A stretch of DNA of 53,499 nucleotides from Oscillospiraceae bacterium (GTDB taxonomy: Bacteria; Bacillota; Clostridia; Oscillospirales; Acutalibacteraceae). Below, piece by piece: positions 4,767 to 52,738 of this stretch (positions are counted from its first letter, which is position 1; each line of letters opens with the position of its first letter). The position numbers and the translations under genes were made by a program. The notes beneath the pieces are model-generated. The model was given only the letters and a program-made list of their open reading frames with translations, had not been told where the DNA came from and did not search any database. The DNA is taken from the NCBI GenBank assembly GCA_902773485.1, contig CACYEQ010000041.1:1-53499 (forward strand). Direction: 5' to 3'.

Positions 4767-6440
4767 ATGGATATTTCAAACATTACACCTACCAATTTCA
4801 TTGAAGAATTTATTAATAAAGATTTGGAAGAGGGCGTTTATTCAAGGGTGCAAACCCGTTTTCCGCCCGAGCCGAACGGCTATTTGCACATTGGCCACGC
4901 AAAGGCTATTTGCATTGATTTCGGCACAGCCGAAAAATACGGCGGTATTTGCAATTTGCGTCTTGATGACACCAACCCTACCAAAGAAGATACAGAATAT
5001 GTTGACGCAATAATCGAAGATATTAAGTGGCTGGGGTTTCATATAGACAATGTCTATTATGCTTCGGATTATTTTGATAATATTCACAAATATGCAATAG
5101 AACTTATAAAACAAGGCAAAGCATATGTTTGCGATTTGACACCTGAGCAGATAAGGGAATACAGAGGTACTTACGAAAAACCGGGCAAAGAAAGTCCTTA
5201 CAGAAACCGCTCGATTGAGGAGAATCTTGATTTATTTGAGCGAATGACTAACGGCGAATTTGCCGACGGCGAAAAGGTGCTTCGTGCTAAAATTGATATG
5301 GCTTCACCAAATCTTAATATGCGTGACCCGATTATTTACCGTGTTTTACACGCACACCACCACAGAACGGGTGACAAATGGTGCGTTTATCCTATGTATG
5401 ATTTCGCTCACCCTTTGTCTGATGCTGACGAAAATGTAACATTTTCGCTTTGTACTTTGGAATTTGAGGACCATAGACCGCTTTACGATTGGCCTTTAAA
5501 AGAACTTAAAAAGTGGAAAGAACCGCCTCGCCAGATTGAGTTTGCAAGAATGAATTTAAACTACACTATTACCTCAAAACGCCGTTGCTTAAAACTTGTA
5601 AACGAAGGGTTAGTCAGCGGTTGGGACGACCCAAGAATGGCAACACTTTCGGGTATGCGTCGCAGAGGTTACCCTGCCGAAGCAATTCGTGATTTTGTAA
5701 GCAAAATCGGCGTTTCAAAAGCAAATTCGGTTATTGATTATTCTTTGCTTGAATCTTGCGTTCGTGATAATTTGAATAAAAATGCCGAACGTGCAATGGT
5801 TGTTTTAAATCCGCTTAAAGTTATTGTTGATAATTACGAAGACGGCAAAACAGAGCAAATTGAAGTGCCGATAAATCCCGAACAACCCGAACTCGGCACT
5901 AAAAAAGTACCTTTTTCAAAAGAGATTTACATTGAAAAAGAGGACTTTATGGAATGTCCTCCGAACAGAAAATATTTCCGCCTTTGCCCCGAAAAAGAGG
6001 TGCGCTTGAAAGGTGCGTATTTTATTAAATATGTTTCTTGCGAAAAGGACGAAAACGGCGAAGTTACCGCTGTTCATGTAACCTATGACCCTGCTTCTTA
6101 CGGCGGTGAATCACCCGACGGCAGAAAGGTAAAAGGCACAATACATTGGGTATCTACCGAGCATTGCAGTTGTGCTACTGTTCGACTTTATGATAGACTT
6201 TTCACAGTCGAAAACCCTGTCGGCAATCCTGATATTGACTTTACCGAGTATTTAAACCCGAACTCCTGCGTAACCCTTGAAAACTGCAAAATTTCTGATG
6301 ATGTAGCGAAAGCCGAAGTCGGCGCAACATTCCAATTTATGCGTCAAGGGTATTTTTGCATTGATAAGGATTCAACCGCTGACAAAAAGGTTATTAACCG
6401 AGTTGTCGCATTAAAAGATTCCTTTGCAAAAAAGAACTAA
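4767..6440 (+). CDS. glnS: Glutamine--tRNA ligase
   Basis: FPPEPNGYLHIGHAKA (HIGH), an ITSKR KMSKS-like motif, and GlnRS-type C-terminal anticodon-binding domains. Confidence 0.92.
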   Translation: MDISNITPTNFIEEFINKDLEEGVYSRVQTRFPPEPNGYLHIGHAKAICIDFGTAEKYGGICNLRLDDTNPTKEDTEYVDAIIEDIKWLGFHIDNVYYASDYFDNIHKYAIELIKQGKAYVCDLTPEQIREYRGTYEKPGKESPYRNRSIEENLDLFERMTNGEFADGEKVLRAKIDMASPNLNMRDPIIYRVLHAHHHRTGDKWCVYPMYDFAHPLSDADENVTFSLCTLEFEDHRPLYDWPLKELKKWKEPPRQIEFARMNLNYTITSKRRCLKLVNEGLVSGWDDPRMATLSGMRRRGYPAEAIRDFVSKIGVSKANSVIDYSLLESCVRDNLNKNAERAMVVLNPLKVIVDNYEDGKTEQIEVPINPEQPELGTKKVPFSKEIYIEKEDFMECPPNRKYFRLCPEKEVRLKGAYFIKYVSCEKDENGEVTAVHVTYDPASYGGESPDGRKVKGTIHWVSTEHCSCATVRLYDRLFTVENPVGNPDIDFTEYLNPNSCVTLENCKISDDVAKAEVGATFQFMRQGYFCIDKDSTADKKVINRVVALKDSFAKKN

Positions 6441-20922: not shown

Positions 20923-21240
20923 GGGGCGGTGGCTCTCGCCGTGCGAAGAACCTCCGCTCGCAACACTTCGGCGAGTAGTCTGATTTAACTTTAAGATTTG
21001 TGATGCCTCAGGGTTAATAATTCGCTTCAACTTTGAGGCTTTTATTTTTTATCAAATATATAAATGTTTTGTAGGGGAGTGCATTGCACTCCCGAAATAA
21101 ATGCACAAAACAAAAACAGGAACGCATTGCGTTCCCCTACAAAATACATTTTTGTTTGAAAGCCTTCGACTTTCGGGAAGGTGGCAAGCGAATGATTGAC
21201 GAATGAGGACAAAAACTGCGATTGCTACGCCCCCTACATT
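20923..21240. repeat. Composite intergenic repeat, copy 1
   Basis: Modules: GC hairpin, CTTCGGCGAG, GCCTCAGGG hairpin with T-run, ATCAAATATATAAATGTTTTGTAGGGG, and hairpins. Shares ordered modules with copies at 38966, 42300-42903, 46612, and 49851. Confidence 0.8.
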
Positions 21241-21242
21241 TT

Positions 21243-22373
21243 TTATTTTTTACTATCGTAATCTTCTAAAAAATTATGCTTAACGCCGTCTTTTTTGTAG
21301 GCGATAACGGTGTTTAAATTTACATTTTCAACGCTTTTGAAAATATGCTTTTCAACAAGCGGATTTGTCTTTTTAATTTCGGCTATCAACTGCTTGATTT
21401 CGACCCGTTTCGAGCGGTTTTCCTCGTTGTTACAGGTTGTACAAGTATCGGTAAACTTGCAGGCACACTGAATAAAATGTAAATCATTATAATCCCGCCA
21501 TGCTTTAATATCATCTTCACGGATAAGGTAAAGCGGACGAATTAACTCCATACCCTCAAAATTCGTACTGTGAAGTTTGGGCATCATAGTTTGCACCTGT
21601 GCACCGTAAAGCATACCCATTAATATAGTTTCAATAACATCATCAAAGTGGTGACCGAGTGCAATTTTGTTGCAACCCATTTGTTTGGCAAAATTGTAAA
21701 GATACCCCCGCCTCATTCTCGCGCAAAGGTAGCAGGGCGATTTTTCAATATTGTAAACCGACTCAAAGATGTTCGACTCAAAAATTTCAATAGGAACATT
21801 GAGTTTTTTTGCATTTTGCTCAATAACTTTGCGGTTTTCAGCATTATAGCCGGGGTCCATTACTAAAAATTTTACGCTAAAATCAAAATCGCTGAACCTT
21901 TGCAATTGCTGAAAAAGTTTAGCCATAAGCATTGAATCTTTACCGCCCGAAATGCAAACGGCGACTTTATCGCCCGGTTTTATCAGTTCATAGGTTTTAA
22001 TCGCTTTGGTAAACTTTGAAAAAATAGTTTTGCGAAACTTTTTTTGCAGACTTTTTTCTACCGATTTGCAAAAATCAACCGAATCTTCTCGTTCAATCTC
22101 GCTCATAAGCCAAGCGATATATCCGCCTTTAAGACTGTACGCATCAAGCCCGACTTTGCAAAGTTTTTCGGCGGTTTTGATACTTTTCTGTCCTCTTGTG
22201 CAACAAATAACGATTTTTTTATCGGGTTGTGGCGGGTTTTTTAAAAGTTCTTCTTCCGATATGCAAACCGCATTTTTTATTTCGCCGTGCATAATTTCAA
22301 TTTCGCTTCTTGTGTCGTAAATTATGTAACTGTTTTTATCCAGTATTTTTAGTTCTTCAATTGTAATTTCCAT
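21243..22373 (-). CDS. Rhodanese domain fused to a TtcA/PP-loop tRNA thiolation-type ATPase
   Basis: N-terminal rhodanese (~100 aa) with active-site loop CCTRGQKS. Followed by PP-loop SGGKDS and conserved Cys pairs (CYLCARMRR; CACKF...CTTC). Confidence 0.85.
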   Translation of the reverse strand: MEITIEELKILDKNSYIIYDTRSEIEIMHGEIKNAVCISEEELLKNPPQPDKKIVICCTRGQKSIKTAEKLCKVGLDAYSLKGGYIAWLMSEIEREDSVDFCKSVEKSLQKKFRKTIFSKFTKAIKTYELIKPGDKVAVCISGGKDSMLMAKLFQQLQRFSDFDFSVKFLVMDPGYNAENRKVIEQNAKKLNVPIEIFESNIFESVYNIEKSPCYLCARMRRGYLYNFAKQMGCNKIALGHHFDDVIETILMGMLYGAQVQTMMPKLHSTNFEGMELIRPLYLIREDDIKAWRDYNDLHFIQCACKFTDTCTTCNNEENRSKRVEIKQLIAEIKKTNPLVEKHIFKSVENVNLNTVIAYKKDGVKHNFLEDYDSKK

Positions 22374-37739: not shown

Positions 37740-38966
37740 ATGAATAAAACAAAAAAAATATTTTCTTTATTGATTTCAGCGGTAATTATAATGTCGCTTG
37801 CGAGTTGTACATACACTTTAAACGCTGAGATTAAAGAAGATGGCTCGGTTGATGCTTATAACAAATATACTATCGCAGAGTCAGAACTCGACAAATTCTA
37901 TATCGCTTATGAAGATTCTTCTTTATCAGGTCTTATTCCTAATAATTCGGCTTTTCCGCAGAACAAAGAAGAATTTATTTCACAGTCCGACGCAAAAGGT
38001 CTTACTGTCACAACAGACGGTGTGAAATATTACTCTTATCAAGAAAAAAACGATAGTATTACAAATTTAAATAGCCTTAGCGAGAATGTATTAATGCAAG
38101 GTGTAGGCGAATTTACAACAACCGATTTTTGGCTTTATTCAGTCAGCGGTGATAATTCGTTATACACAAGTGTAGCATCAATGTTATCGTTAGTTAAAGC
38201 GACAGGTGTTGACGCAAAAGTTGAATATGTAATAAAAATGCCTTATAAAATTGTAAAAACAAACGCAACAAAAGTTGATGATTACACAGTTAGTTTTTCT
38301 TATGACGATAAAAAGGTTTATGCAACAACTGAAAAATCTACTGCCGATTGGACAAAATCCGATAACATTGAAATGCAGGTAATAAATTTTGCAAAAGCAA
38401 AACTCAAACCTGTAAAAATCAGCAGTTTGGCAGTTGCTTATAAAAACAATAAGTCGATTGCTATTGAATGGGATTTTGAAGATTATTTCAGCAAATATAC
38501 CATTCAGCGTAAAGTTGGGAGCGGAAAATGGACTACTGTAAAAAACACTTCCTCTTTTTCATATACCGATAAAAATGTAAAAGCAGGTAAAAAGTATTCT
38601 TACCGCGTAAGAGCGTATATTAAAACTTCTGATTTCACACTTACAGGTGCTTTCAGCAAGACAAAATCGCTTAAATTTGCAAATCTTACCGCAAAACCTA
38701 GTATAAGCGTTAAAAAAGGCGTTAAAAAGGCTACTGTTACTATTAAAAAGTTTGATAAGACCGTAAAAGGTTATCAAATTCAGTATTCAACAAGCAGTAA
38801 ATTTAAAAAGCCAAGCAAAGTTTACACAACTAAGTCGAAAAAAGTTATTAAAAAGTTGAAATCAGGCAAGAAATATTATTTCAGAGTGAGAAAATATTGT
38901 AAAGATATTGACGGCGACGAAGTTTACGGTGCTTTCAGCAAAACAAAATCCGTAAAAATAAAATAG
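37740..38966 (+). CDS. Lipoprotein with an uncharacterised N-terminal domain and two C-terminal fibronectin type III-like repeats
   Basis: Lipobox LASC. Two repeats of ~90 aa end in KKYSYRVRAY and KKYYFRVRKY. Starts 17 nt after the pseudokinase gene. Confidence 0.8.
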   Translation: MNKTKKIFSLLISAVIIMSLASCTYTLNAEIKEDGSVDAYNKYTIAESELDKFYIAYEDSSLSGLIPNNSAFPQNKEEFISQSDAKGLTVTTDGVKYYSYQEKNDSITNLNSLSENVLMQGVGEFTTTDFWLYSVSGDNSLYTSVASMLSLVKATGVDAKVEYVIKMPYKIVKTNATKVDDYTVSFSYDDKKVYATTEKSTADWTKSDNIEMQVINFAKAKLKPVKISSLAVAYKNNKSIAIEWDFEDYFSKYTIQRKVGSGKWTTVKNTSSFSYTDKNVKAGKKYSYRVRAYIKTSDFTLTGAFSKTKSLKFANLTAKPSISVKKGVKKATVTIKKFDKTVKGYQIQYSTSSKFKKPSKVYTTKSKKVIKKLKSGKKYYFRVRKYCKDIDGDEVYGAFSKTKSVKIK

Positions 38967-39125
38967 CGGTGAGCCACCGCTCCCAACACTTCGGCGAGAA
39001 GTTAGATATTACTTATAAATTTGTAGTGCCTCAGGGTTAAAGTTTCCGCTTTTACCCTGAGGCTTTTTTGTTTTTACCAAACATATAAAAATTTTGTAGG
39101 GGATGGCTTGCGGTGCATCCCGAAA
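38966..39125 (+). repeat. Composite intergenic repeat, copy 2 (same orientation as copy 1)
   Basis: Reads GCGGTGAGCCACCGC hairpin, CAACACTTCGGCGAG, GCCTCAGGGT..ACCCTGAGGC, ACCAAACATATAAAAATTTTGTAGGGG, then a hairpin. Confidence 0.85.
39028..39075 (+). terminator. Intrinsic terminator carried by the repeat (ends the pseudokinase-lipoprotein unit)
   Basis: Perfect 10-bp stem gcctcagggt/accctgaggc followed by TTTTTTGTTTTT. Confidence 0.85.
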
Positions 39126-39144
39126 AAGTCCGGAAAATTATATA

Positions 39145-39182
39145 AAAAGCAGGGCGGTCTGAGTGACCGCCCTGTTTGCTTT
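39145..39182. terminator. Bidirectional terminator (gyrA 3' end)
   Basis: 10-bp stem cagggcggtc/gaccgccctg (39150-39174) flanked by A/T runs. Confidence 0.8.
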
Positions 39183-41699
39183 TTACTCGTTTTCATCGGG
39201 ATTTTCTATTGGTTTTACATCATCTTCCGAGGTTTTTTTGTTATCGATATTTTCAGCCGATGTTTCAGGTTCTTCCTCTTCTTTTTCGGTAAGCGAGAGA
39301 GTTATTATTCGCTCATCATCTTTAACCCTCATTACTCGAACACCCTTTGAAGGCCGCGCAAACTTTGAAATTGAATTTACAGGCGTTCTAATAACAATAC
39401 CTGCCGATGTAATAAGCATAATATCTTCATCGCTGCATTCATCAACCATAGCGATTTGTGCAACATCGCCGTATTTTGCGGTTCGGTAGTTGATAATACC
39501 TTTACCGCCACGGGATTGAATACGGTAATCGTCAACCGTTGACTGTCTGCCGTAGCCGGTTTCGGTGATTGTGAGAATGTTTGCGTTCTCTCTTACAACC
39601 GCCATACCGATAACCTCGTCGCCTTCTTTCAGCGTTATCGCTTTAACACCTCTTGCTGTTCTGCCGAGCGGTCTTGCGTCGTTTTCGTTAAATCTTATCG
39701 CCATACCTTTTTTGGTTGCAATAATAAGTTCATCGTCGCCGTCGGTAAGATCAACGAATCTCAATTCATCGCCCTCATCAAGCGTTACCGCATTTACACC
39801 GCCTTTTCGGTTGGTTTTGTAAACGCCAAACTGCGAACGCTTTACAACGCCGTTTTTAGTTCCCATTACAATATATTTTTCATCATCAAATTCTGATAAA
39901 TGTACCATCGCGGTAACTCTTTCGCCCGCTTCAAGCGGTAAAAGGTTAATAATGTTAAGACCTTTTGAAGTTCTTGTTCCCTCAGGCACAACATAGGCTT
40001 TTTGATGATAAACTCTGCCTAAATTCGTGAAATACAAAATAATATCGTGAGTTGAGCAAATAAACATATGCTCTGCATAATCTTCATCACGGGTGGTCAT
40101 ACCTTTAAGACCTTTACCTCCACGGTTTTGAGCGTGGTAAGTATCAACAGGCAAACGCTTAATGTAGCCCATTTTCGTAAGCGTAAGCACGCAATCTTCA
40201 ACAGGAATTAAATCTTCATCGTCAACATCGCCCTCAACCATAGAAATTTCGGTTTTGCGGTCATCGTTGAATCTATCACGGATTTTAAGCACTTCTTCTT
40301 TAACAATTTCAAGAATTCTCTGCTCATTTGCGAGAATATCTTTAAAATCGGCAATTTTTTCGTGAAGCGACTGCAATTCAGACTCGATTTTTTCAATTTC
40401 CAAACCTGTCAACTGGGCAAGTCGCATATCTACAATGTGTTTTGCCTGAATTTCATCAATCGGGAAGTTTTCCATTAATGAAGTTTTTGCTTCGTCAACG
40501 GTTTTGGAAGAACGAATTATTTTTATAACTTTATCAATATCGTCAAGCGCAATTTTTAATCCTTCCAAAATATGCGCTCTGTCCATCGCTTTTTTAAGGT
40601 CAAATTTTGTGCGACGAGTAATGATTTCTTCTTGATATTTAACATATTCGTGCATAATTTCTTTTAAATTAAGCACTTTCGGAACGCCGTCAACCAGCGC
40701 CAGCATAATAACACCAAACGTTGTTTGCAACTGGGTATATGTATAAAGTTTGTTGAGTGTAACCTGTGGGTTTACATCTTTTTTTAGTTCAACAACGATT
40801 TTCATACCGTCACGGTTTGAATAATCAACAATATCGTCAATACCCTCAATTTTCTTGTTATCAGCCAAATCAACAATTGATTTAACAAGTTCTCTTTTAT
40901 TAACCTGATAAGGTATTTCGGTAATTACAATCTGGAATTTGTTGTTACGAATTTCCTCAATTTCGGCTTTACCGCGAACAACAATTTTTCCTCTGCCGGT
41001 AGCATAAGCCGAGCGGATTCCGCTTTTACCCATAATAACGCCGCCTGTCGGAAAATCAGGACCGGGCAAAAGTTCGTTCATCTCATCGAATGTAATATCC
41101 GGATTGTCAATATAGCCGACAATGCAGTCAATTACTTCGCCCAAGTTATGAGGCGGAATATTTGTAGCCATACCAACGGCGATACCTTTTGAACCGTTTA
41201 CCAGCAAATAAGGAATGCGGGAAGGAAGTGTTGTAGGCTCTTTGAGTCGGTCGTCGTAGTTGGGCATAAAGTCAACAGTGTCTTTATCAATATCGGCAAG
41301 CATTTCAACTGCCATTTTTGACATTCTTGCCTCAGTATAACGGTACGCTGCGGCAGGGTGACCGTCAACCGAACCGAAGTTTCCGTGACCGTCAATCATT
41401 TCATAGCGCATTGAGAAATCCTGTGCCATTCTGACTAATGCGTCATAAACCGAAGTATCTCCGTGAGGGTGGTAAGATCCCAGCACCGCACCAACAATAT
41501 CGGCACATTTACGGTAAGGCTTGTCAGGCGTAAGATTTCTTTCAAACATTGTATAAAGAATTCTTCTGTGAACAGGCTTTAAACCGTCACGAACATCCGG
41601 CAATGCACGGGAAACTATAACGCTCATTGAATAATCAAGGAACGATTTTTCCATAGTATCGCATATTTCGACAGGTATAATTTTCTCTTCAAAATCCAT
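39183..41699 (-). CDS. gyrA: DNA gyrase subunit A
   Basis: 838 aa with active-site region AAAYRYTE and a QRDR-like HPHGDTSVYDA. Acidic C-terminal tail. Confidence 0.97.
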   Translation of the reverse strand: MDFEEKIIPVEICDTMEKSFLDYSMSVIVSRALPDVRDGLKPVHRRILYTMFERNLTPDKPYRKCADIVGAVLGSYHPHGDTSVYDALVRMAQDFSMRYEMIDGHGNFGSVDGHPAAAYRYTEARMSKMAVEMLADIDKDTVDFMPNYDDRLKEPTTLPSRIPYLLVNGSKGIAVGMATNIPPHNLGEVIDCIVGYIDNPDITFDEMNELLPGPDFPTGGVIMGKSGIRSAYATGRGKIVVRGKAEIEEIRNNKFQIVITEIPYQVNKRELVKSIVDLADNKKIEGIDDIVDYSNRDGMKIVVELKKDVNPQVTLNKLYTYTQLQTTFGVIMLALVDGVPKVLNLKEIMHEYVKYQEEIITRRTKFDLKKAMDRAHILEGLKIALDDIDKVIKIIRSSKTVDEAKTSLMENFPIDEIQAKHIVDMRLAQLTGLEIEKIESELQSLHEKIADFKDILANEQRILEIVKEEVLKIRDRFNDDRKTEISMVEGDVDDEDLIPVEDCVLTLTKMGYIKRLPVDTYHAQNRGGKGLKGMTTRDEDYAEHMFICSTHDIILYFTNLGRVYHQKAYVVPEGTRTSKGLNIINLLPLEAGERVTAMVHLSEFDDEKYIVMGTKNGVVKRSQFGVYKTNRKGGVNAVTLDEGDELRFVDLTDGDDELIIATKKGMAIRFNENDARPLGRTARGVKAITLKEGDEVIGMAVVRENANILTITETGYGRQSTVDDYRIQSRGGKGIINYRTAKYGDVAQIAMVDECSDEDIMLITSAGIVIRTPVNSISKFARPSKGVRVMRVKDDERIITLSLTEKEEEEPETSAENIDNKKTSEDDVKPIENPDENE

Positions 41700-41744
41700 G
41701 TTGCTAATTTATCTCCAATCTGAAAATTATTCTTTATTTAAAAA

Positions 41745-42272
41745 TTATTTTTCTTCTGTTTCAGGTATATCGCAAAAATAATCTAAAACCTTTTTTAGTG
41801 CTGGCTTATTAGTATAATTCAAAACCCTTTTAGGAATTGCCATTAATCTGCCGTCAACAAGCTTAATTATAATTTCATTTTCGCTTGTAAGCACCGCAAA
41901 AACATCTTCTTTTAAAATATCCCAATTTGCGTCATACGCATCAACCACTACATTAATCTTATCTTCAAAAATTGTAAGCACGGTGTTTTCACCTGTTGTA
42001 GAGCCTCTTACAGTATTTTTTTCGTTGTTTTTGTAGCCGAAATAAGCGAAAATATTTACTATTATCAACGCAACTGTTGGCAAATAAGCATTTGGGTTTT
42101 CAAAAATTTCGGTAAGCGATTTGCCCACAAGCGGAATAAACGATAAAACTATTACAAGCACTGATATTACCGCAATAAAAATCATTCTTTTCTTGTAATT
42201 TTTCAATACGCCTGCGGTGTAAAGTGCTTCTTTTACCTCGTCAGCCGATAAAATATATGATAGTTGCTCCAT
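41745..42272 (-). CDS. YcxB-like hypothetical membrane protein inserted between gyrB and gyrA
   Basis: 175 aa with two central TMs and a C-terminal domain resembling the YcxB-like family (..LMAIPKRVL..). Function unknown. Confidence 0.6.
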   Translation of the reverse strand: MEQLSYILSADEVKEALYTAGVLKNYKKRMIFIAVISVLVIVLSFIPLVGKSLTEIFENPNAYLPTVALIIVNIFAYFGYKNNEKNTVRGSTTGENTVLTIFEDKINVVVDAYDANWDILKEDVFAVLTSENEIIIKLVDGRLMAIPKRVLNYTNKPALKKVLDYFCDIPETEEK

Positions 42273-42299
42273 AAATACCTCGTTTTAAAAATAGATTTT

Positions 42300-42903
42300 T
42301 CAAAATTACAAGGGAAACCATTCCACCGCTTCGCGGTCCCCTTTCCCTTGACAGGGACGGCACGGTGTGCCACCGCAGGCAAATCTTCGGCAAAATGTTT
42401 GTTTTAAAATTTAGTTTTGTGTCGCCTCAGGGTTGAAGTTTGATTTAACTTTATGTTTTGCAATAGCATATTTAGGTGCCCCTTTTAGGGGAACTTTCGC
42501 CTTTTGGCGATAAAGGGTGGTTTTGCTCAAACTGCCCACAATGTCATTCTGAACGAAAGTGAAGAATCCCCAACACTTAAATCTAAATAAATTCTTTGTT
42601 GCGTGTGAAATAATTATAAAATGAATGAACCACGAGCGAATATTGCGTGTCGAGGCACTCGACGAGATTCCTCGTTACACTCGGAATGACTTTATTAGAA
42701 ATTTAAGCAGATTTTGGCGGGGGCTTCCCAGCCGACCCCTACAAAATGTTTATATGTTTGATAAAAAAACAAAAAACTCAAAGATAAATCAAACTTCAAC
42801 CCTGAGGGGATACAAACTATAAATTATATTAAGGCTTATACCCGAAGAGTATACCCGTCGAGGCACTCGACCCGAAGAGTATGCCCGTGGTGGCTCGCCA
42901 CTA
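42300..42903. repeat. 600-nt cluster of intergenic repeat modules (partial copy in one orientation, complete copy in the other, extra hairpin modules)
   Basis: CGCCTCAGGGTTGAAGTTTGATTTAAC (42422-) and covarying hairpin pair GTCATTCT..AGAATC (42543-68) / GATTCC..GGAATGAC (42666-90). GTCGAGGCACTCGAC occurs twice. CCCCTACAAAATGTTTATATGTTTGAT (42736-) and GTGGCTCGCCAC abut the gyrB stop. Confidence 0.8.
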
Positions 42904-44868
42904 TATGTCGAGGTTTTCTACAAACTGTGCGTTTTCTTCGATAAATTTCTTTCTCGGCTCAACTTCATCGCCCATTAGCACGCTGAAAACTTTATCGGCA
43001 CGCTCGGCATCAGCCATAGTAACTTTAAGCATAGTTCTGAAAGAAGGGTCCATTGTGGTTTCCCAAAGTTGTTCGGGGTCCATTTCACCAAGACCTTTGT
43101 AACGCTGAATAGAAGCGTTTCCGCCGAGTTCAGCATTATATTTATCACGCTCTGCCTCGTTAAAAGCGTATCTTTTCTGTTTGCCTTTTTTAACTTCAAA
43201 AAGTGGCGGCTGAGCGATATAAATATGACCGTTTTCGATAAGTTGAGGCATATAACGGAAGAAGAATGTAAGCAAAAGTGTTGCGATATGTGCGCCGTCG
43301 ACATCCGCATCGGACATAATTATTACTTTATGATAACGTAGTTTTTCGATATCAAAATTATCGCCGATACCCGTTCCCAAAGCGATAACGACAGGTGTTA
43401 ATTTATCGTTGCCGTAAACTTTATCGATTCTCGCTTTTTCAACATTGAGCATTTTGCCCCAAAGAGCCAAAATTGCCTGATATTTACTATCTCTGCCTTT
43501 AATTGCAGAACCGCCCGCTGAATCACCCTCGACTATGTAGAGTTCGTTTTTTGTCGGGTCACGAGAAATACAATCAGCCAATTTATCAGGCATACGCATT
43601 TTGCCTATACCTTTTGATTTTTCACGCTCTAATTCTCTGGCTTTTTGCGCTTTTTCTCTTGCAGCGGTTGCCGACATTACTTTGCTGACAACCAACTTTG
43701 CAACTGCCGGGTTATCTTCAAAATAATCGGTCAATTTCTCGTTCATAGCCTGTGAAACGAGCGTTCCGATATATGTATTTCCGAGTTTTGCTTTGGTTTG
43801 ACCTTCAAACTGCGCGTCGGTAAGTTTTACCGAAATGACTGCTATCAAACCCTCTTGAACATCTTCTCCTTTAAAATTTGAATCGTTATCTTTTAAATAC
43901 TTAAATTTTCTTGCGTAATCGTTTACAACTTTGGTAAGCGATTTTTTGAAAGAATTTTCGTGAGTACCGCCGTCAACGGTATGAATGTTGTTTGCAAACG
44001 AGATGATATTTGTATCGTAACCGCTGTTATAAAGCAAAGCGACTTCAACCTGTGCATCGCCCTTTACTGCGGAAATGTAAATATCGTCTTCTGTAATTCG
44101 GTTAGCGGCTTTCTTTTTAGAAAGCAAGAAATCGCAATAAGATTTAATACCTCCCTCAAAATGAAGAACATCTGATCTCGGCTCACCTTTATCGTCAACT
44201 TCTGCGTCAAAACGCTTGTCGGAAAGGTTAATTCTGATACCTGCGTTCAAAAACGCTTGCTCACGAAGTCTGGTCAACAAAGTTTCATAATCGTATCTTG
44301 TAGTTTCGGTGAAAGTTTTTGCGCTGGCTTTAAAAGTAACGGTTGTACCCGAGCCCTCGCATTCGCCGATACATTTTAAATCATAAACAGGTTTTGAATC
44401 TTCAAAACGCTGGCGGTAGAGTTTGCCGTCTTTTCGCACTTCTACTTCGAGCCAATCGGAAAGAGCATTTACAACTGATGAACCAACACCGTGCAAACCG
44501 CCTGATACTTTATAGCCCGAACCACCAAATTTACCGCCTGCGTGAAGTTGAGTAAATACAACGGTAACCGCCGGCATGCCCATTTTTTTCTGAATATCAA
44601 CAGGAATACCTCGACCGTTGTCGGAAACTCTTATAATATCATCATCTAAAATTTCGACATTAATATCGGTGCAATAGCCTGCCAACGCCTCATCGATAGA
44701 GTTATCGACAATTTCGTAAACAAGATGGTGCAAACCTCGCTCGCCTGTCGAGCCGATATACATACCGGGGCGTTTTCTTACGGCTTCAAGTCCTTCAAGA
44801 ACCTGAATCGCCGAGGCATCATATTCCTCCTCAACCTGCGTGTTCATCAATACTTCTTCGTTTTCCAT
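42901..44868 (-). CDS. gyrB: DNA gyrase subunit B
   Basis: GHKL ATPase, Toprim (EGDSAGG) and C-terminal ..[14 protein letters not shown] 44868 follows AAAGGTGAAG; the track start at 44907 is upstream of the SD. Confidence 0.97.
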
Positions 44869-44939
44869 TTTATCTTCACCTTTCCGGCACAGAACCTGTG
44901 CACGCATTCTCCTCGGGTAAAAACTTTAATATGACTAAT

Positions 44940-45000
44940 AGTTTGCTTCCCCTCGGGGTTTAAATTTTTGGTTTTTATTTTCGTGCCGTAAGGCACACAT
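44940..45000. repeat. Repeat-family fragment (CCCCTCGGGG hairpin; GTGCCGTAAGGCAC hairpin related to 49855-49867)
   Basis: The reverse complement GTGTGCCTTACGGCACGAAAA matches GTGTGCTTACAGCACGAAAA at 49853-49872. Confidence 0.6.
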
Positions 45001-45028
45001 TAATTATTAATTATTAATTATTAATTAT
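45001..45028. repeat. Tandem heptamer (TAATTAT) x4
   Basis: Direct reading. A shorter version, TAATTATTAATT, occurs at 46612-46623 next to another repeat copy. Confidence 0.9.
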
Positions 45029-45041
45029 TCACTATTCATTT

Positions 45042-45287
45042 TCACACCAATTTGTTTTTAACCCTGTAACTTAATGTTTTTGGGGCGATTGGTGAAATGT
45101 AAGCGTTGTTTTTTGTTACCACTAACGACAACGGTAAATCATAAATACTTGTATAAACTATGCTATTTTCTTTTTCGGCATTATTAAGAAAATCCCTTGT
45201 TTTTTTCGATACAGTAACATTATCCATATCAAAAATGCCTATAATTTCATCATTTTTGACAAATGTATTTCCGCCGAGATACAACAT
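45042..45287 (-). CDS. remB: DUF370 family protein (RemB/YaaB-like)
   Basis: 81 aa in the conserved position between recF and gyrB, with a family-like sequence (..IIGIFDMD..). Confidence 0.8.
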   Translation of the reverse strand: MLYLGGNTFVKNDEIIGIFDMDNVTVSKKTRDFLNNAEKENSIVYTSIYDLPLSLVVTKNNAYISPIAPKTLSYRVKNKLV

Positions 45288-45300
45288 AATTCTTCACCAT

Positions 45301-46386
45301 TTATTCGTTTGTAAGCAGACCGTTTTCCATTTTAAAAACCTTGCCCTCATTCAGCGATTTTATTGTATTTGGGTCGCAACAGGTAATAAAAACCTGCCAA
45401 CCTTTTATATGATTAAGAATATAATCCTGTCTTGTTAAATCAAGTTCGCTCATTACATCATCTAAAATTGCTATCGGCTGTTCGCCTGTATGCTTTTTCA
45501 AAATTTCCGCTTCGGAAAGTTTTAAAGATACTACCGCCGAACGACGTTGACCTTGCGAGCCGAATATTTTAAGCGAAAGTCCGTTAATAAAAAATTCCAT
45601 ATCATCACGGTGCGGTCCGCAATTGGTGGTGGCGGTGACTGCGTCTTGCACTCGATTTTTCTTTAAATGAGTTAAAATTTCTTTCTCGCTGCCGTCGCCC
45701 GTTGTGCATTTATATTTAATTGAGATTTCCTCTTTATTTGAAGAAATTCCACTGTAAATTTCTTTAATATATTCGCCGAGTGCTTCAATATATTTTTTTC
45801 TTTGAGCGATTATGTAAGCACCGCATTTTGCAATTCTGCCCTCGTAAACATCAAGCATAAAATCGAGTTCGGGGTGAAATACAACATCTTTTAAAACGGT
45901 ATTTCTTTGTAAAACCGCTCGGTTATAAGAGTTTAGAATTTTATTATATTTAGGTCGAACAGTTGAAATTGCGTTATCTAAAAATTTTCTTCTTACAACA
46001 GGGCCTTCTTTAATCAAATCCATATCAGCAGGCGAGAAAAGCACCGCCGTGAATTTTTCGGAAAGACCGCTTGCGGAACTTAAATTTATATCATTAACCG
46101 AAGCCAGACGTTTATTTGTGATAATAATGTCGGCTTTTTGCGAACGTTCTCCCGAAAAAAACAAAGTTTTGATTTTTGCGGTTTGATTTTCGCTCATTAT
46201 ATTTATAAGTTGATTATCTTTTGTTCCTCTGAAACTCTTTTTACCGGTAAAAAGCCAAATTGCTTCAATAAGGTTAGTTTTTCCCTGTGCGTTATCGCCG
46301 TAAATTATGTTGATTTCTTTATCGGGAACAAACTCCCCTTTTTTAAGATTACGGTAATTTTCGTATTCAATTTTCTCAATATACAT
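45301..46386 (-). CDS. recF: DNA replication/repair protein RecF
   Basis: Walker A GDNAQGKTN, SMC-like signature and Walker B ILDDVMSELD. Confidence 0.95.
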   Translation of the reverse strand: MYIEKIEYENYRNLKKGEFVPDKEINIIYGDNAQGKTNLIEAIWLFTGKKSFRGTKDNQLINIMSENQTAKIKTLFFSGERSQKADIIITNKRLASVNDINLSSASGLSEKFTAVLFSPADMDLIKEGPVVRRKFLDNAISTVRPKYNKILNSYNRAVLQRNTVLKDVVFHPELDFMLDVYEGRIAKCGAYIIAQRKKYIEALGEYIKEIYSGISSNKEEISIKYKCTTGDGSEKEILTHLKKNRVQDAVTATTNCGPHRDDMEFFINGLSLKIFGSQGQRRSAVVSLKLSEAEILKKHTGEQPIAILDDVMSELDLTRQDYILNHIKGWQVFITCCDPNTIKSLNEGKVFKMENGLLTNE

Positions 46387-46593
46387 TTAATTTATCACTT
46401 CAATTATTTCATCAAAAATCTCAATTCTATCGCCAGAGCGAATTTTTTTTCCTCGCATAAGGCAAGTTTCACCGTTTACTCTTACCTCTCCGTTTTGAAT
46501 AAACATTTTTGCAGCACCGCCCGTAGACACAATGCCCGATAGTTTTAAAAGCGAGTCTAGTTTTATAAATTCTGTATCAATTTTAATTTGCAT
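46387..46593 (-). CDS. yaaA: S4-domain RNA-binding protein YaaA
   Basis: 68 aa in the conserved position between dnaN and recF, with an S4-like fold sequence. Confidence 0.85.
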   Translation of the reverse strand: MQIKIDTEFIKLDSLLKLSGIVSTGGAAKMFIQNGEVRVNGETCLMRGKKIRSGDRIEIFDEIIEVIN

Positions 46594-46611
46594 TTTTTGT
46601 TTTCTTTCATT

Positions 46612-46820
46612 TAATTATTAATTTTTTTATTTCAGCGATTGCTACGTCTCCGCCCTACTATATGTTTATTTGTTTTTACATATTTTAACGGGATGTTAAG
46701 GATGCCATCCCTTACAAATTTTTTATATAGTTTCATCAAACTTTAACCCTGAGGCAACGCAAAATTACAAGTTAAATCAAACTTTTCGCCGAAAAATATG
46801 CCCGCGGTGGCTCACCGCTA
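46612..46820 (-). repeat. Composite intergenic repeat, copy 4 (inverted relative to copies 1 and 2)
   Basis: The minus strand reads ATAG-CGGTGAGCCACCGC..TTTTCGGCGAAAAGTTTGATTTAACTT..GCCTCAGGGTTAAAG..TTTGTAAGGGATG..CATCCC. The junction is identical to the one at 38963. Confidence 0.85.
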
Positions 46821-47930
46821 TTCGGATTTCATAATAACAGGTACTACGATAAAGAGAAAATCATCACCTTCAAGAGGTAAAATTTTAATCGGTCTTTGCG
46901 AGCCGTTCACAACAACCTTAACTTTATCGGTATCTACTGCTCTGAGTGCGTCAATAAAAAATCTTGAATTAAAACCTATTTCCTGCTCATCGCCCGAAAT
47001 ATCACAATTAAGAAAATCAGAAGATTTTCCGTTTATTGTGGAACAACGCATATAAACCTGATTATCTTTAAAAGTACATCTTATAGGAGATTTTACCCTG
47101 TCAGTAATAACAAGCGAAATTCTTTCAATCAAATTAAGCATTTCTTTTGTTTCGGTAATAACAACTGTCTGTTCGCCCTCGGGAATTACCGAATTATTGT
47201 TATAATTGAAGAATTCACCCTCTAATAATCTTGAAATTAATATGTAATCTTTAATTTTAAACTCTATATGGCGACGGCTTACGCTTACAGTTACATCAAA
47301 ATCGCTTTCTTCACCGATAATTTTCAAAATTTCATTAAGTCCTTTTGAAGGAACAACAAAATTAAAATCGCCGTTATCGTTAATTTCTTCTTTTCGAATA
47401 GCCAAACGGCAACCGTCAGCAGAAACAAGTTTTAACACATTATTGTTAAGTTCAAACAAAATACCTTTATAAATAGGTCTGTCATCAGCGGTAGAAACTG
47501 CAAAAACTGTTTGTGAAATCATACTGCGAAGCGTATCTGCATTAACTGAAAATGATTTTTCATCGTCAAGTTTCGGCAGTTCGGGGTACTCGTTTGCGTC
47601 CAAAGCGATAATTGTAAATTCACTTGTTCCGCCTGTTATTAATGCTTTATTAATATCATAAATTTCTATTGTTACTCTGTCGGAAGGTAATTTTCTTAAA
47701 ATCTCACCCAGAATTTTAGCATTAAGCACAGTACATCCCTCGGTTACAATATCGGCTGAAATTTTTGTTTGCATTGCTATTTCAAGGTCATAACCCGAAA
47801 GAATTAACTCATTTTGATTTGTTCTAATTAATATTCCTTCAAGAGTTGCAAGCGATGATTTTGAAGTAACTGCTCTCGCTACGCAACTTACTGCGTTTGA
47901 TAATAATGCTGTTTCACAAGAAAATTTCAT
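46818..47930 (-). CDS. dnaN: DNA polymerase III beta subunit (sliding clamp)
   Basis: 370 aa with three-domain clamp sequence, downstream of dnaA. Confidence 0.96.
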   Translation of the reverse strand: MKFSCETALLSNAVSCVARAVTSKSSLATLEGILIRTNQNELILSGYDLEIAMQTKISADIVTEGCTVLNAKILGEILRKLPSDRVTIEIYDINKALITGGTSEFTIIALDANEYPELPKLDDEKSFSVNADTLRSMISQTVFAVSTADDRPIYKGILFELNNNVLKLVSADGCRLAIRKEEINDNGDFNFVVPSKGLNEILKIIGEESDFDVTVSVSRRHIEFKIKDYILISRLLEGEFFNYNNNSVIPEGEQTVVITETKEMLNLIERISLVITDRVKSPIRCTFKDNQVYMRCSTINGKSSDFLNCDISGDEQEIGFNSRFFIDALRAVDTDKVKVVVNGSQRPIKILPLEGDDFLFIVVPVIMKSE

Positions 47931-48338
47931 TTTTTATTCTCCTTAAATTATAATATTTTTAACATACGCTTAAAAAAATTAATATTTTAAAATTCAAAAA
48001 CTTACAAAAATAACTATTAATTATAGTAATAGTAGTAGGGGTATTTAAAAATGTTAATAACTTGTCTGTTGCCAGTAAAATACACACTTTTGATATCAAC
48101 ATTGAATGTTAATTATTATATGTGAAAATTTGAAAATATTTTTGAGTGTTATGTTTTAAACATTTTTGTTGAAAATTAAATGTTATATGTTTAAATTTTG
48201 TCGAAAAATTTTTGCATAATTTTTTTCGTCAAAAGCCATCGATGGCTCACTGTGTCATCATCTGTAATGGTATTTTTAATAACAATGCGTAGCACACCAA
48301 ATTTATTAATTATCAATTATTCTTTATTTATTAAAATA
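47931..48338. other. oriC: Replication origin core (oriC, dnaA-dnaN spacer)
   Basis: Degenerate DnaA boxes, given on the plus strand: TGTGAAAAT 48121-29, TGTTGAAAA 48167-75, TGTCGAAAA 48209-17, TGTTAATAA 48051-59. Also a GGGG cluster, a trio array, and a >90% AT stretch at 47950-48017. Confidence 0.7.
48018..48041 (+). promoter_or_regulatory. DnaA-trio-like array with adjacent GC cluster
   Basis: The plus strand reads TAA TTA TAG TAA TAG TAG TAG GGGG. This equals 3'-GAT-5'-type trios (consensus 3'-[G/A]A[T/A]-5') abutting a GC cluster, with a DnaA-box-like TGTTAATAA 10 nt beyond. Confidence 0.6.
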
Positions 48339-49652
48339 CTACTTGAATTTTGGCGGGGTTTTACCTGTAAGATTACGCATTACTTTTTCAACTTTTCTTT
48401 CTTCGATATCATTTTTCAAAATCAAGTTATCAATTTTGTTGCAGGAATAAAGAACAGTTGAATGGTCTTTATCAAACTCTTTACCGATGTTTTTTAAAGA
48501 AGTATCGGTAATTTTGCGAATAACATACATTGCAACCTGTCTTGCGTGAGAAATTTCAGCGTCTTGTCTTTGTGAATAAATATCATCAACCGAAACATTG
48601 TAAACACTTGAAACGCTTTCAATAATTCTTTTTATTGTAACAGGTTCGGGTTCATCATCACGTTTAATATCTCTTATTGTGTTTTCGGCAACCGAAAGTG
48701 TAATATTATCGTAAATCATTGAATAAGCCTGCAACTTTTTAACAACGCCCTCTAATTGACGAATATTGCTTTTAACATTATCGGCAACATAAATCAAAAT
48801 ATCTTCCGGCAATTTAAAATTCATAAGTTGCGCTTTTCTTTTTAAAATACCTATTCTTGTTTCATATTCCGGCGGTTGAATATCGGCAATAATACCTGCT
48901 TCAAACCTGCCTACAAGTCTTTCCGGAATTGAATCAATATCTTTCGGCGGACGGTCGGAAGTTAAAACTATTTGTTTTCGTTTTTCATAAAGTTCGTTAA
49001 AAGTATTAAAAAACTCTTCCTGTGTAGCCTCTTTACCTGCAATAAATTGAATATCGTCAATAAGCAAAACATCTACATTTCTGTATTTTTCACGAAGTTT
49101 ATGCATAGTTCCGTGTTGCAAGCAATAAATAACCTCATTTGTAAATGCTTCGCAAGTAGCCAAAACTATTTTTTTATCAGGAAATTTTTCTTTTATTCTG
49201 GTTGAAATAGCAGAAAGCAAATGAGTTTTACCGAGTCCCGAATTTCCCCAAATAAAAAGCGGATTATAAATAATACCGTCGTTTTCGGCAACGGCAAGAG
49301 AAGCCGCATGAGCGAAACGGTTTGAAGAACCAACAATAAATGTATCAAACGTATATTCATATTGTTCCGAAGTATCAACAAATTTAATAGGAGAAATAGG
49401 CTTATCTTCTTCGGTAATAATAACAACTTTTACGGGGAATTTTAATACTTCTGTAAAAGCGTCAACTAAAATACCTTTATAATTATCTTCAATAATATTT
49501 TTCAAAAAAGGCGTATTTACATATAAAATCACATTACTTCCTTCAATTTTTTGTAAAGAAATAGTGGTAAACCAAGCGTTAAAAGTAACTTCGTTCACCT
49601 GTGTTTTACAATATTTGCTGACCGCTTGCCAAACTTCCTGTAACGTTTCCAT
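48339..49652 (-). CDS. dnaA: Chromosomal replication initiator protein DnaA
   Basis: AAA+ Walker A GNSGLGKTH, Walker B LLIDDIQF, and a domain IV HTH (..DHSTVLYSC..). Confidence 0.97.
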   Translation of the reverse strand: METLQEVWQAVSKYCKTQVNEVTFNAWFTTISLQKIEGSNVILYVNTPFLKNIIEDNYKGILVDAFTEVLKFPVKVVIITEEDKPISPIKFVDTSEQYEYTFDTFIVGSSNRFAHAASLAVAENDGIIYNPLFIWGNSGLGKTHLLSAISTRIKEKFPDKKIVLATCEAFTNEVIYCLQHGTMHKLREKYRNVDVLLIDDIQFIAGKEATQEEFFNTFNELYEKRKQIVLTSDRPPKDIDSIPERLVGRFEAGIIADIQPPEYETRIGILKRKAQLMNFKLPEDILIYVADNVKSNIRQLEGVVKKLQAYSMIYDNITLSVAENTIRDIKRDDEPEPVTIKRIIESVSSVYNVSVDDIYSQRQDAEISHARQVAMYVIRKITDTSLKNIGKEFDKDHSTVLYSCNKIDNLILKNDIEERKVEKVMRNLTGKTPPKFK

Positions 49653-49850
49653 TATGTAATTTTTCCTCCTTTATTTTTAATAAGCCGAATTATAACCAAT
49701 TATATTTTAACATATTTTTATTAATTTTGCAATATATTATTTAATATTATATATATTATATAATATATACTTAATAAATAAGCGTAAAAAATGTTAAAAT
49801 AAATAAAAAGCAAATAGAAAATAAAGAAAAATGAATAATAAAAAAAATTA

Positions 49851-50115
49851 GTGTGTGCTTACAGCACGAAAAATTCACATCAGGCTTAATACCTGAGACA
49901 TTACGAATATTTAAGCAATATCAAACTTATAGCCCGAAGAGTTGCGTTGCAATCATTGTAGGGAGGGAGTAAACCCCTGTCCTACAAAATGTTTATATGT
50001 TTGATGAAAACAAAAAGCCTCAGAGTTAAAGCAAAACTTCAAAACTGAGGCAACACAAATATTAAAGTTACATCAAATTTTTCGCCGAAGAGAAGCGTGT
50101 CTAGGCACTCGACCG
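49851..50115 (-). repeat. Composite intergenic repeat, copy 5 (about 1.5 units) upstream of dnaA
   Basis: Reads CCTACAAAATGTTTATATGTTTGATGAAAACAAAAAGCCTCAGAGTT..AACTGAGGC..TTAAAGTTACATCAAATTTTTCGCCGAAGAG..GTCTAGGCACTCGAC. Near-identical stretches occur at 42738-42775. Confidence 0.85.
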
Positions 50116-50125
50116 CAAAAAAGTC

Positions 50126-50154
50126 TTGACAAAATATAAAAAGTAGTATATAAT
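50126..50154 (+). promoter_or_regulatory. Sigma-A promoter of the rpmH-rnpA operon
   Basis: TTGACA (50126-31), 17 nt spacer, TATAAT (50149-54). Confidence 0.65.
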
Positions 50155-50261
50155 TCTTAAATGGTTTAGAATCTTTTATTATGCCTTTTCTAAAACAACT
50201 ATAAAGTATCTGAAAACTTAATAAAAGTTCAAAATAAAAATATTAAAGAAAGGTGAAAAAA

Positions 50262-50396
50262 ATGTTAAGAACATTCCAACCAAAAAAACTACACAGAAAA
50301 AAAGTTCACGGTTTCAGAAAAAGAATGGCTGACAGAAACGGCCGTAAAGTTCTTGCAAGAAGAAGAGCAAAAGGAAGAAAAAGACTCTCTTATTAA
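50262..50396 (+). CDS. rpmH: 50S ribosomal protein L34
   Basis: 44 aa: [54 protein letters not shown]. Below the ORF-track size cutoff. Confidence 0.95.
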
Positions 50397-52677: not shown

Positions 52678-52707
52678 ACCGTAGCACAAAACAATATTAA
52701 AAACAAT

Positions 52708-52738
52708 GCCTCAGGAGTTAAGCCTGAGGCGTTTTTTT
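52708..52738 (+). terminator. Intrinsic terminator (GCCTCAGG..CCTGAGGC hairpin)
   Basis: 8-bp stem followed by GTTTTTTT. The hairpin core is the same as at 409-436 and in the repeat family. Confidence 0.8.

Follow-up and report, generated by a model that had tools for sequence, protein, structure and literature searches.

The 53,499-nt contig CACYEQ010000041.1 (C41) of the Oscillospiraceae bacterium assembly GCA_902773485.1 carries a family of short, hairpin-rich intergenic repeats that crowd into the gene cluster around its replication origin. We consider it probable (about 60%) that this family is a lineage-specific mosaic of small hairpin repeats, comparable to bacterial interspersed mosaic elements (BIMEs) and their repetitive extragenic palindromes (REPs), rather than a single transposon. 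The window analyzed is the whole contig, one of 156 in a draft assembly (1.375 Mb, 35% G+C, 87.7% complete; G000 below). Two relatives, G005 and G011, hold the same repeat family, and G007, G001, and G003 were compared as further relatives. The closest is G005, with a 90% identical DnaA.

A repeat family in the origin gene cluster

Gene order and a GC skew sign change near 48–50 kb identify the window as the origin region. A lipoprotein gene converges on gyrA, which is followed by a ycxB-like gene, gyrB, remB, recF, yaaA, dnaN, and dnaA, with rpmH and rnpA diverging on the far side. Nine spacers separate the genes from the lipoprotein gene to rpmH, and repeats occupy five of them: lipoprotein-gyrA, ycxB-gyrB, gyrB-remB, yaaA-dnaN, and dnaA-rpmH. 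An earlier note on this contig had placed them in every intergenic spacer of the cluster. The five spacers it named are indeed occupied, but the 408-bp dnaN-dnaA spacer has no copy by either nhmmer profile or covariance model, and the gyrA-ycxB (45 bp), remB-recF (13 bp), and recF-yaaA (0 bp) spacers are smaller than a copy.

The six copies or fragments with ordered modules described earlier were all located again by repeat finding, direct reading, and alignment, at 20923–21240, 38966–39125, 42300–42903, 46612–46820, and 49851–50115, with the fragment now placed at about 44885–44990. An iterated nhmmer profile has 20 matches in the genome (E-values 1e-9 to 1e-26), eight of them on C41. A genome-wide scan with a model of the copies, as the note had proposed, was made with a covariance model of 24 pairs (R1); it returned 19 copies (E-values 1e-4 to 1e-22), again with eight on C41, and an origin bias. 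R1 copies number 23 in G005 and 19 in G011. All eight contig matches lie in the named spacers, where the family had been said to be concentrated, and neither nhmmer nor R1 matched any other spacer of the window. Among the short dispersed repeats that self-BLAST shows in the assembly, this family is the main one.

Enrichment near the origin, another claim of the note, was borne out. Six of 17 loci fall on C41, which is 3.9% of the assembly (binomial, 3e-5), and five of the 17 fall within 11.2 kb (2e-7). The same holds for both relatives with the family: the 87-kb dnaA contig of G005 has five of 19 loci (P 0.002), four of them within ~25 kb of dnaA, and in G011 three of 19 R1 matches are on the three short contigs that hold the origin cluster. 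Copies off C41 adjoin trpS, argS, cysS, tuf, der, a sigma factor gene, and others. The tested module words are not in excess at contig ends, so hidden copies elsewhere are not indicated.

Module anatomy and subfamilies

Copies are assembled from GTAG-tagged REP hairpins (GTAGGG-stem-CCC), units of a 6-bp stem/3-nt loop hairpin plus ..GCAACTCTTCGG (one to four in tandem, 29–30 nt apart), and an AT-rich linker, GAAAAGTTTGATTTAACTTTAAnATTTGTG. From the gene-abutting end, an alpha copy reads as tandem units, the linker, GCCTCAGGGTT..AACCCTGAGGC with a T-run, and ATCAAACATATAAAnnTTTTGTAGGGG with a variable GC hairpin; its GCCTCAGGG element extends to a full hairpin with a U-run. Beta copies are alike up to GCCTCAGGG and then have GGTGCCCCTTTGAGGGGAAC / TGTCGCCTTTAGGCGAC / TAAAGGGTGG (a tail also given as GGTGCCCC..GGGGAAC). 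Gamma copies, alike to the same point, continue with GTGCCGTAAGGCAC and an ATTATT-rich tail; such tails accompany gamma copies in G011 as well. The modular shuffling noted earlier is evident in this divergence of three subfamilies after GCCTCAGGG and in a third hairpin type, GTCATTCTGAACGAAAGTGAAGAATCC, inside the 628-bp ycxB-gyrB block. Long near-identical stretches had also been pointed out, and positions 42738–42773 and 49981–50016 are 92% identical.

In a 15-copy alignment, the short hairpin has six pairs, of which five show changes on both sides with pairing kept. Its covariation score is 0.255; shuffles score 0.133, none of 500 reaching the observed value, and slid controls score 0.056–0.106. 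The short-hairpin stems are maintained by compensating changes, and the structure is under selection. The long GCCTCAGGG terminator stem has 7–8 G-U cells at each of three pairs; since G-U cells pair only in the RNA of one strand, this tolerance points to that strand's RNA. The motifs CTTCGG and CCTCAG are nearly invariant between copies. The short hairpin unit was rejected as a wider family because most of the 72 genome-wide matches to CTCTTCGG are chance matches inside genes and only ~20 lie in the repeat. A strict GTAG-plus-hairpin regular expression was dropped; it missed most imperfect stems and caught mainly tRNAs. Rfam 15 has no family for the repeats at gathering or permissive thresholds, with nothing below E 0.27 in 38900–50300; its matches elsewhere in the window are T-box and TPP only.

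Two ordinary-looking terminators at 394–438 and 52693–52737 share the GCCTCAGG..CCTGAGGC stem with the terminator module of the repeat. These terminators may have arisen from the module by reduction, or they may represent the stem from which it grew. CCTCAGG occurs 13 times on C41 and 102 times in the genome (both strands counted).

REP character and stop codon junctions

Heads of the GTAGGGG, GTAAGGG, or GTAGGAC type with self-complementary cores lie at 21069, 21142(-), 39094, 42744(-), 46660(-), 46717(-), and 49956/49987 (a double foot). The GTAGGG heads stand at the foot of GC stems, giving the unpaired 5' GT[AG]G tag by which REPs are recognized. GTAG-type heads are found within 120 nt of 11/19 copies in G000, 24/25 in G005, and 13/17 in G011, with ~24% expected by chance. 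Exact TGTAGGGG words number 11 and GTAGGGG words 23 in 1.38 Mb. The 19 composite copies of G000 fall below the dozens to hundreds by which REPs are also defined.

Eight copies have their exact start at the stop codon of a gene that runs in the same direction (the lipoprotein gene, gyrB, dnaN, trpS, and genes for a histidine kinase, a 249-aa protein, a sugar transferase, and an O-acetylhomoserine sulfhydrylase). All eight stops are TAG, compared with 13.6% of the stops of long open reading frames (ORFs) genome-wide. The corresponding genes at empty G005 sites end in TAA, indicating that the G arrives with the element. One stop in G005 lies within a GTAG head (L038:7465). REPs with GTAG ends that provide TAG stops, and REPs less than 20 bp from the 3' ends of genes, have been described (Di Nocera et al. 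2013, PMC3733652). TnpA-REP subclass 2.4, for which the double-foot form is documented, is linked to REPs of the GTAGGGG hairpin type (Quentin et al. 2018, PMC6006769). The earlier description of the family as non-autonomous and REP-like is supported; no gene for a REP-associated tyrosine transposase (RAYT) was detected in the genome.

The gyrB start given by the ORF finder (44907), which is the gene's first in-frame ATG, falls within the gamma repeat, where the apparent ribosome-binding site is the reverse complement of CTCCTCGG. Alignments of gyrB to G007, G001, and G003 begin at residue 9 or 14, and an AGGTGA site precedes an ATG near 44868. This ATG, 13 codons downstream of 44907, is probably the true start. 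The mimic in the repeat could lead an annotation pipeline to miscall it.

Filled and empty sites

The ycxB-gyrB spacer is 628 bp in G000 and 15, 42, and 73 bp in G005, G007, and G001; the yaaA-dnaN spacer is 224 bp in G000 and 40, 5, and 5 bp in the same relatives. The dnaA-rpmH spacer measures 610 bp in G000, 331 bp in G005, and 359 bp in G007. Empty sites in the sister species identify the G000 copies as lineage-specific insertions; the blocks came into these spacers once the lineage had separated from the sister species. At yaaA-dnaN, G011 has a beta copy in the orientation opposite to that of G000, and its dnaA-rpmH spacer has five GTAG hairpins only. Other sites are shared. The gyrB-remB fragment is orthologous in G005 (L023:8541) and G011 (L059:1372), and the equivalents of the sites after trpS and after the sugar-transferase gene are filled in G005.

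BLAST detected the family in two of 11 further species in the genus and in no genome of the 19 from other genera, leaving 28 searched relatives without a match. A strict pattern scan of ~185,000 species genomes matched only the rumen metagenome-assembled genomes of the two nearest relatives that share the repeat, Ruminococcaceae bacterium RUG11462 and RUG12659. JGI metagenome contigs had no match to the DNA pattern and no relatives by a ycxB protein query. The best-matching pair of copies in the genome is 86% identical. Local amplification was rejected as the cause of the cluster, as window copies are as distant from each other (70% identity) as from copies elsewhere (69%). With identities of at most 86% and no local closeness, there has been neither a local burst nor recent activity. 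The copies are old.

A RAYT-like gene in the sister species

No Y1/RAYT gene was found in the 87.7%-complete G000 assembly by PF01797 search or by tblastn with sister RAYTs. The note had seen no transposase or RAYT gene in the window, and this extends to the assembly for Y1/RAYT, the transposase class that was searched. A RAYT gene was also undetected in one relative. G005 has a 168-aa RAYT-like ORF between gyrA and ycxB; its 8-nt overlap with ycxB makes it most likely part of a gyrB-ycxB-ORF-gyrA operon. This ORF matches NF047646 ("REP-associated tyrosine transposase") at E 1e-18 and 67.7 bits, below the 80-bit equivalog cut-off, and PF01797 at 28 bits; the match to E. coli TnpA-REP 4ER8 is marginal (E 0.002). 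A second G005 RAYT lies between typA and a hydrolase gene. Both sites are compact and RAYT-free in G000 (45 bp and 22 bp).

Each G005 RAYT gene contains an in-frame, perfect inverted pair of GTAG hairpins 146–147 nt apart. The pair of the origin-cluster RAYT is a 29-nt sequence, TTGTAGGGGTCGGCTTCCCAGACGACCCG (L023 5708–5736 / 5883–5911), that recurs by dispersed G005 copies; GTAGGGGTCGGCTTCCCAGAC.. from this RAYT is found beside dispersed copies on L041 and L044, and its REP resembles the copy D hairpin GTAGGGGTCGGCTGGGAAGCC. The second pair is at L052 1053–1078 / 1226–1251. In about 25/30 RAYT homologs sampled across the order (L069–L098), a pair with GTAG heads occupies these same two positions, and its stem varies by gene. 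The arms are identical or nearly so within a gene and unlike between genes, which suggests that the in-frame pairs are under concerted evolution. An in-frame inverted REP pair is a published hallmark of subclass 2.4 (PMC6006769) and was therefore set aside as a discovery.

Under the mosaic reading, the modules would have spread as single-stranded hairpin DNA through a RAYT-type HUH enzyme. The enzyme gene sits within the gyrB-ycxB-RAYT-gyrA operon of the closest relative, and a preference of the enzyme for DNA close to that gene would account for the crowding at oriC. After loss of the enzyme, the G000 population would be an orphan that can only drift and recombine. A further version, in which the crowding owes nothing to chance of ancestry, a RAYT in the gyrB-gyrA operon preferentially seeds modules into often-unwound origin DNA, and the mosaics, with their second hairpin type and built-in terminator, are retained as topological or transcriptional insulators around dnaA, dnaN, and the gyrase genes, appears improbable; if true, it would give a REP system a positional, replication-linked biology.

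Several observations weigh against the mosaic reading and its mechanism. The three enriched genomes are kin with at least three sites in common, so their enrichments are not independent. Since the window copies are not mutual nearest relatives (the 70% and 69% above), no demonstrated process explains the crowding. The hairpin+CTCTTCGG and GCCTCAGGG modules are not GTAG hairpins and could be passive linkers or have another mobilizer. A copy number of ~20 is far under that of classic REP families. The second G005 RAYT has no GTAGGG[GC]-type REP head within ~1 kb, which weakens the idea of clustering near the enzyme, and G007 has RAYT-like genes and no family copy by BLAST.

Alternative explanations

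The earlier note had offered the label MITE (miniature inverted-repeat transposable element). This label was rejected because the ends, set by filled/empty comparison, are unlike each other and have no terminal inverted repeats. In its fullest form the idea would be a Correia-like deletion derivative of a DDE-type insertion sequence that inserts at and duplicates TA with a transposase supplied in trans, and it is improbable. It draws on GAA-TA-[element]-TA-AAAAA at yaaA-dnaN, on ATA-TA-[element]-TA-AAAC at ycxB-gyrB, and on an element end, (A)TAG-CGG.., that superficially resembles the Correia terminus. The junctions at these two sites are compatible with a TA duplication, but the A/T-rich flanks leave an ambiguity of 2–3 nt that equally allows none. 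A 6-bp hairpin unit forms one end, opposite a GTAG hairpin or an AT-rich tail, and the modules change order and orientation from copy to copy, which cut-and-paste movement of a fixed-end unit would not produce. Terminal inverted repeats of 26 bp and a clear duplication of TA characterize Correia elements. They and other MITEs are likewise small, non-autonomous intergenic repeats that may hold terminators or promoters and have TA-rich insertion sites, but the inverted termini of the Neisseria elements have no counterpart here. Even less credible is an assembly or collapsed-repeat error of a metagenome-assembled genome, which the note had named as a way for its proposal to fail. The draft is fragmented and incomplete, but copies differ pairwise by 14–50% (at most 86% identity), each with unique coding flanks, the tested module words are no commoner at contig ends than expected, and three of the sites are also occupied in one or both of the independently assembled relatives; we regard this explanation as close to impossible.

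A different view is that the family is a selected cassette of the 3' untranslated region, with stabilizing hairpins, a conserved single-stranded CUCUUCGGCGAAAAGUUUGAU, and a terminator, copied between gene ends by recombination; it might also yield a family of small RNAs derived from such regions. We consider this unlikely, although it accounts for the one-strand RNA signal of the G-U pairs, the near-invariant CTTCGG and CCTCAG, the eight copies that begin exactly at a stop codon, and alpha folds with z-scores to -5.9. Long bulged hairpins are missed by a simple terminator scan, and folding was used instead. The hairpin is directly followed by a U-run in 6/6 folded alpha copies (A, B, D, F, C16, and C120), but copy E and the beta and gamma copies do not have the intrinsic-terminator shape. 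A sense bias, expected of a terminator cassette, was not found family-wide: same-direction spacers have four sense and five antisense copies in G000 and three and 10 in the relatives (7 sense vs 15 antisense in three genomes). Copies also lie in divergent promoter regions, such as dnaA-rpmH, there is no Rfam match, and the conserved motifs do not covary, the pairing between them being an RNAalifold prediction. The "portable terminators" of the earlier note therefore hold for the alpha copies, with their terminator-like hairpin and U-run, and not for the family; they are a co-opted subset. Alpha copies at operon ends (B and those on C120, C33, and C38) look like working terminators, copy D is probably one as well, and on the mosaic reading such copies would now serve as ordinary intrinsic terminators for the abutting genes. 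Copy E, inside the dnaN-yaaA-recF-remB-gyrB run, has lost the 3' half of the hairpin, and the remB-gyrB copy is antisense and terminator-less; both fit selection against termination within an operon.

Selection for an origin function is very unlikely. On that view, hairpin mosaics would be kept as binding or topological elements that shield oriC and the gyrase genes, in the way that gyrase and IHF are bound by E. coli BIMEs. The enrichment around dnaA in three related genomes and the independent, different filling of two equivalent spacers in G000 and G011 speak for it. The copies are dispensable, though: ycxB-gyrB, yaaA-dnaN, and dnaA-rpmH are empty in G005, and eight other members of the genus have no BLAST-detectable copy. 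More than half of the copies are by unrelated housekeeping genes on other contigs, and the dnaN-dnaA spacer has none.

Comparison with known repeat systems

The family shares with GTAG REPs of subclass 2.4 (Bertels group 4) the GTAG(G) tag, the GC-rich hairpin with a base of three G-C pairs, the double-foot form, an extragenic position at 3' gene ends with the TAG of the tag used as a stop, and a RAYT in the sister species that holds the shared REP as an in-frame inverted pair. It differs in its ~20 composite copies, few GTAG hairpins, and undetected RAYT, and in joining REPs to non-REP modules (hairpin+CTCTTCGG and the GCCTCAGGG terminator) that are absent from the descriptions in PMC3733652 and PMC6006769. 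Subclass 2.4 is documented in Proteobacteria, Cyanobacteria, and Bacteroidetes, and the host here is an uncultured rumen Clostridia lineage.

E. coli BIMEs are likewise intergenic mosaic clusters of hairpin repeats and fixed linkers, with proposed roles in termination and mRNA stability. Their REPs alternate in orientation, with short linkers, whereas in an array in G005 the REPs are direct and ~127 nt apart, and the linker has a second covarying hairpin and a terminator. This array (L038, G005:C10:34000-43000, 1630–2150) has at least five head-to-tail units of ~127 nt, each with a GTAG hairpin, short hairpin+CTTCGGC, and GCCTCAGGG, and lies on the rpmH side of dnaA, ~10 kb away. Pneumococcal BOX elements (boxA-boxB(n)-boxC) are modular non-coding Firmicute repeats with a tandem-variable internal module, intergenic and transcribed, without their own transposase. 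The family resembles them in being modular and intergenic, with a tandem internal module and no transposase of its own. We know of no GTAG hairpins in BOX elements and no link between them and a RAYT.

REP/BIME repeats and RAYT enzymes are well studied in Proteobacteria, and the searchable literature barely covers Clostridia. The family is one more case of a kind already known, from a host group that is poorly described, and not a new kind; it leaves accepted views of how REP-type elements work unchanged. It is compact, with ~20 copies that mix GTAG hairpins with two other modules, and its enzyme has apparently been lost, which makes it a natural orphan population for comparison with a sister species that keeps its RAYT. 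It also offers clean pairs of filled and empty sites within the most conserved gene cluster of the chromosome, and a warning for annotation, as the repeats provide stop codons and, upstream of gyrB, imitate a ribosome-binding site and a start codon.

Feature coordinates and neighboring genes

Table 1. Repeat copies and their modules in the window (E-values are for R1).
Feature	Position	Strand	Details
Copy A, alpha type, composite	20923–21240	+	E 3e-21
Copy A, hairpin unit	20943–20972	+	
Copy A, AT linker, GCCTCAGGG hairpin, T-run	20973–21050	+	
Copy A, CATATAAA..TTTTGTAGGGG with REP hairpin	21051–21095	+	
Copy A, inverted REP	about 21117–21142		
Copy A, additional motif GCCTTCGACTTTCGGGAAGGTGGCA	21163–21187		
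Copy A, inverted REP	21218–21238		4 nt from TAA stop of gene 21243–22373 (-)
Copy B, alpha type	38964–39123	+	E 1.5e-22; fold -40.4 kcal/mol, z -5.85
Copy B, hairpin GCGGTGAGCCACCGC	38966–38980		TAG stop of FN3 lipoprotein gene (38964–38966) merges into it
Copy B, CTTCGGC	38989–38995		
Copy B, terminator hairpin	39028–39063		T-run to 39075
Copy B, TTTTGTAGGGG with REP hairpin	39094–39121		
Copy C, beta type, partial	42290–42530	+	E 3e-18; faces complete minus-strand copy D; leader motifs CCATTCCACCGC..GGTCCCC..GACGGC
Copy C, hairpin CGGTGTGCCACCG	42363–42375		
Copy C, CTTCGGC	42386–42392		
Copy C, GCCTCAGGG	42423–42431		no 3' partner; beta tail GGTGCCCCTTTTAGGGGAAC / TCGCCTTTTGGCGA / AAAGGGTGG
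Third hairpin type, inverted pair in ycxB-gyrB block	42546–42691		direct reading; GTCATTCTGAACGAAAGTGAAGAATCC (42546–42572) opposite GAGATTCCTCGTTACACTCGGAATGAC (42665–42691)
Stray GTCGAGGCACTCGAC hairpin	42650–42664		
Copy D, alpha type	42715–42903	-	E 6e-18; gyrB TAG stop 42903–42901
Copy D, two tandem hairpin+CTCTTCGG units	42900–42842		followed by AT linker
Copy D, CCCTCAGGG hairpin, T-run	about 42810–42765		
Copy D, CATATAAA..TTTTGTAGGGG with REP hairpin	42765–42715		
Gamma-type fragment, remB-gyrB spacer	44885–44990	+	E 4e-7; antisense to operon; order: hairpin GCACAGAACCTGTGC, CTCCTCGG, CCCCTCGGGG, GTGCCGTAAGGCAC, TTAATTA run
Copy E	46631–46820	-	E 3e-15; dnaN TAG stop (46820–46818) merges into GCGGTGAGCCACCGC; TTTTTCGGC; GCCTCAGGG without hairpin 3' half, hence no terminator
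Copy E, REP-like GTAAGGGATGGCATCC..	46717–46688		
Copy E, REP GTAGGGCGGAGACGTAGCAATCGC	46660–46631		
Copies F and F'	49851–50116	-	E 2e-21 and 4e-6; just upstream of rpmH -35 box (50126)
Copy F, alpha type	50116–49956		complete copy; hairpin GTCGAGTGCCTAGAC, CTCTTCGGC
Copy F, terminator hairpin, T-run	50052–50018		
Copy F', partial gamma copy	49965–49851		
Copy F/F', double-foot REP GTAGG..CCTAC	49987–49958		then CTCTTCGG, GTCTCAGG..CCTGA, GTGCTGTAAGCAC

A short TTAATTA run (~4.5 copies, 44990–45030) follows the gamma-type tail downstream of remB.

Left of gyrA, the window (~27.7–39 kb) differs in synteny from both relatives (L023 and L027). In each of these, gyrA converges on a gene for a small membrane protein, beyond which lies a stretch that matches ~27.7–29.6 kb of the window, inverted. 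The PASTA pseudokinase and lipoprotein genes that adjoin gyrA in G000 had no match in the relative loci compared. As a result of this changed synteny, the lipoprotein-gyrA spacer has no orthologous site for comparison.

Spacers of the origin cluster hold other material in the relatives. Between remB and recF, where G000 has 13 bp, G005 has a type II restriction-modification pair (L023, G005:C10, 8908–10447) made up of an N6/N4 methylase (PF01555) and a TdeIII-type endonuclease (PF09520). G001 has two additional ORFs between gyrB and remB, and the dnaN-dnaA spacer of G007 is 1027 bp long and ORF-free. Throughout the genus, the spacers within this conserved cluster form a hot spot for insertions.

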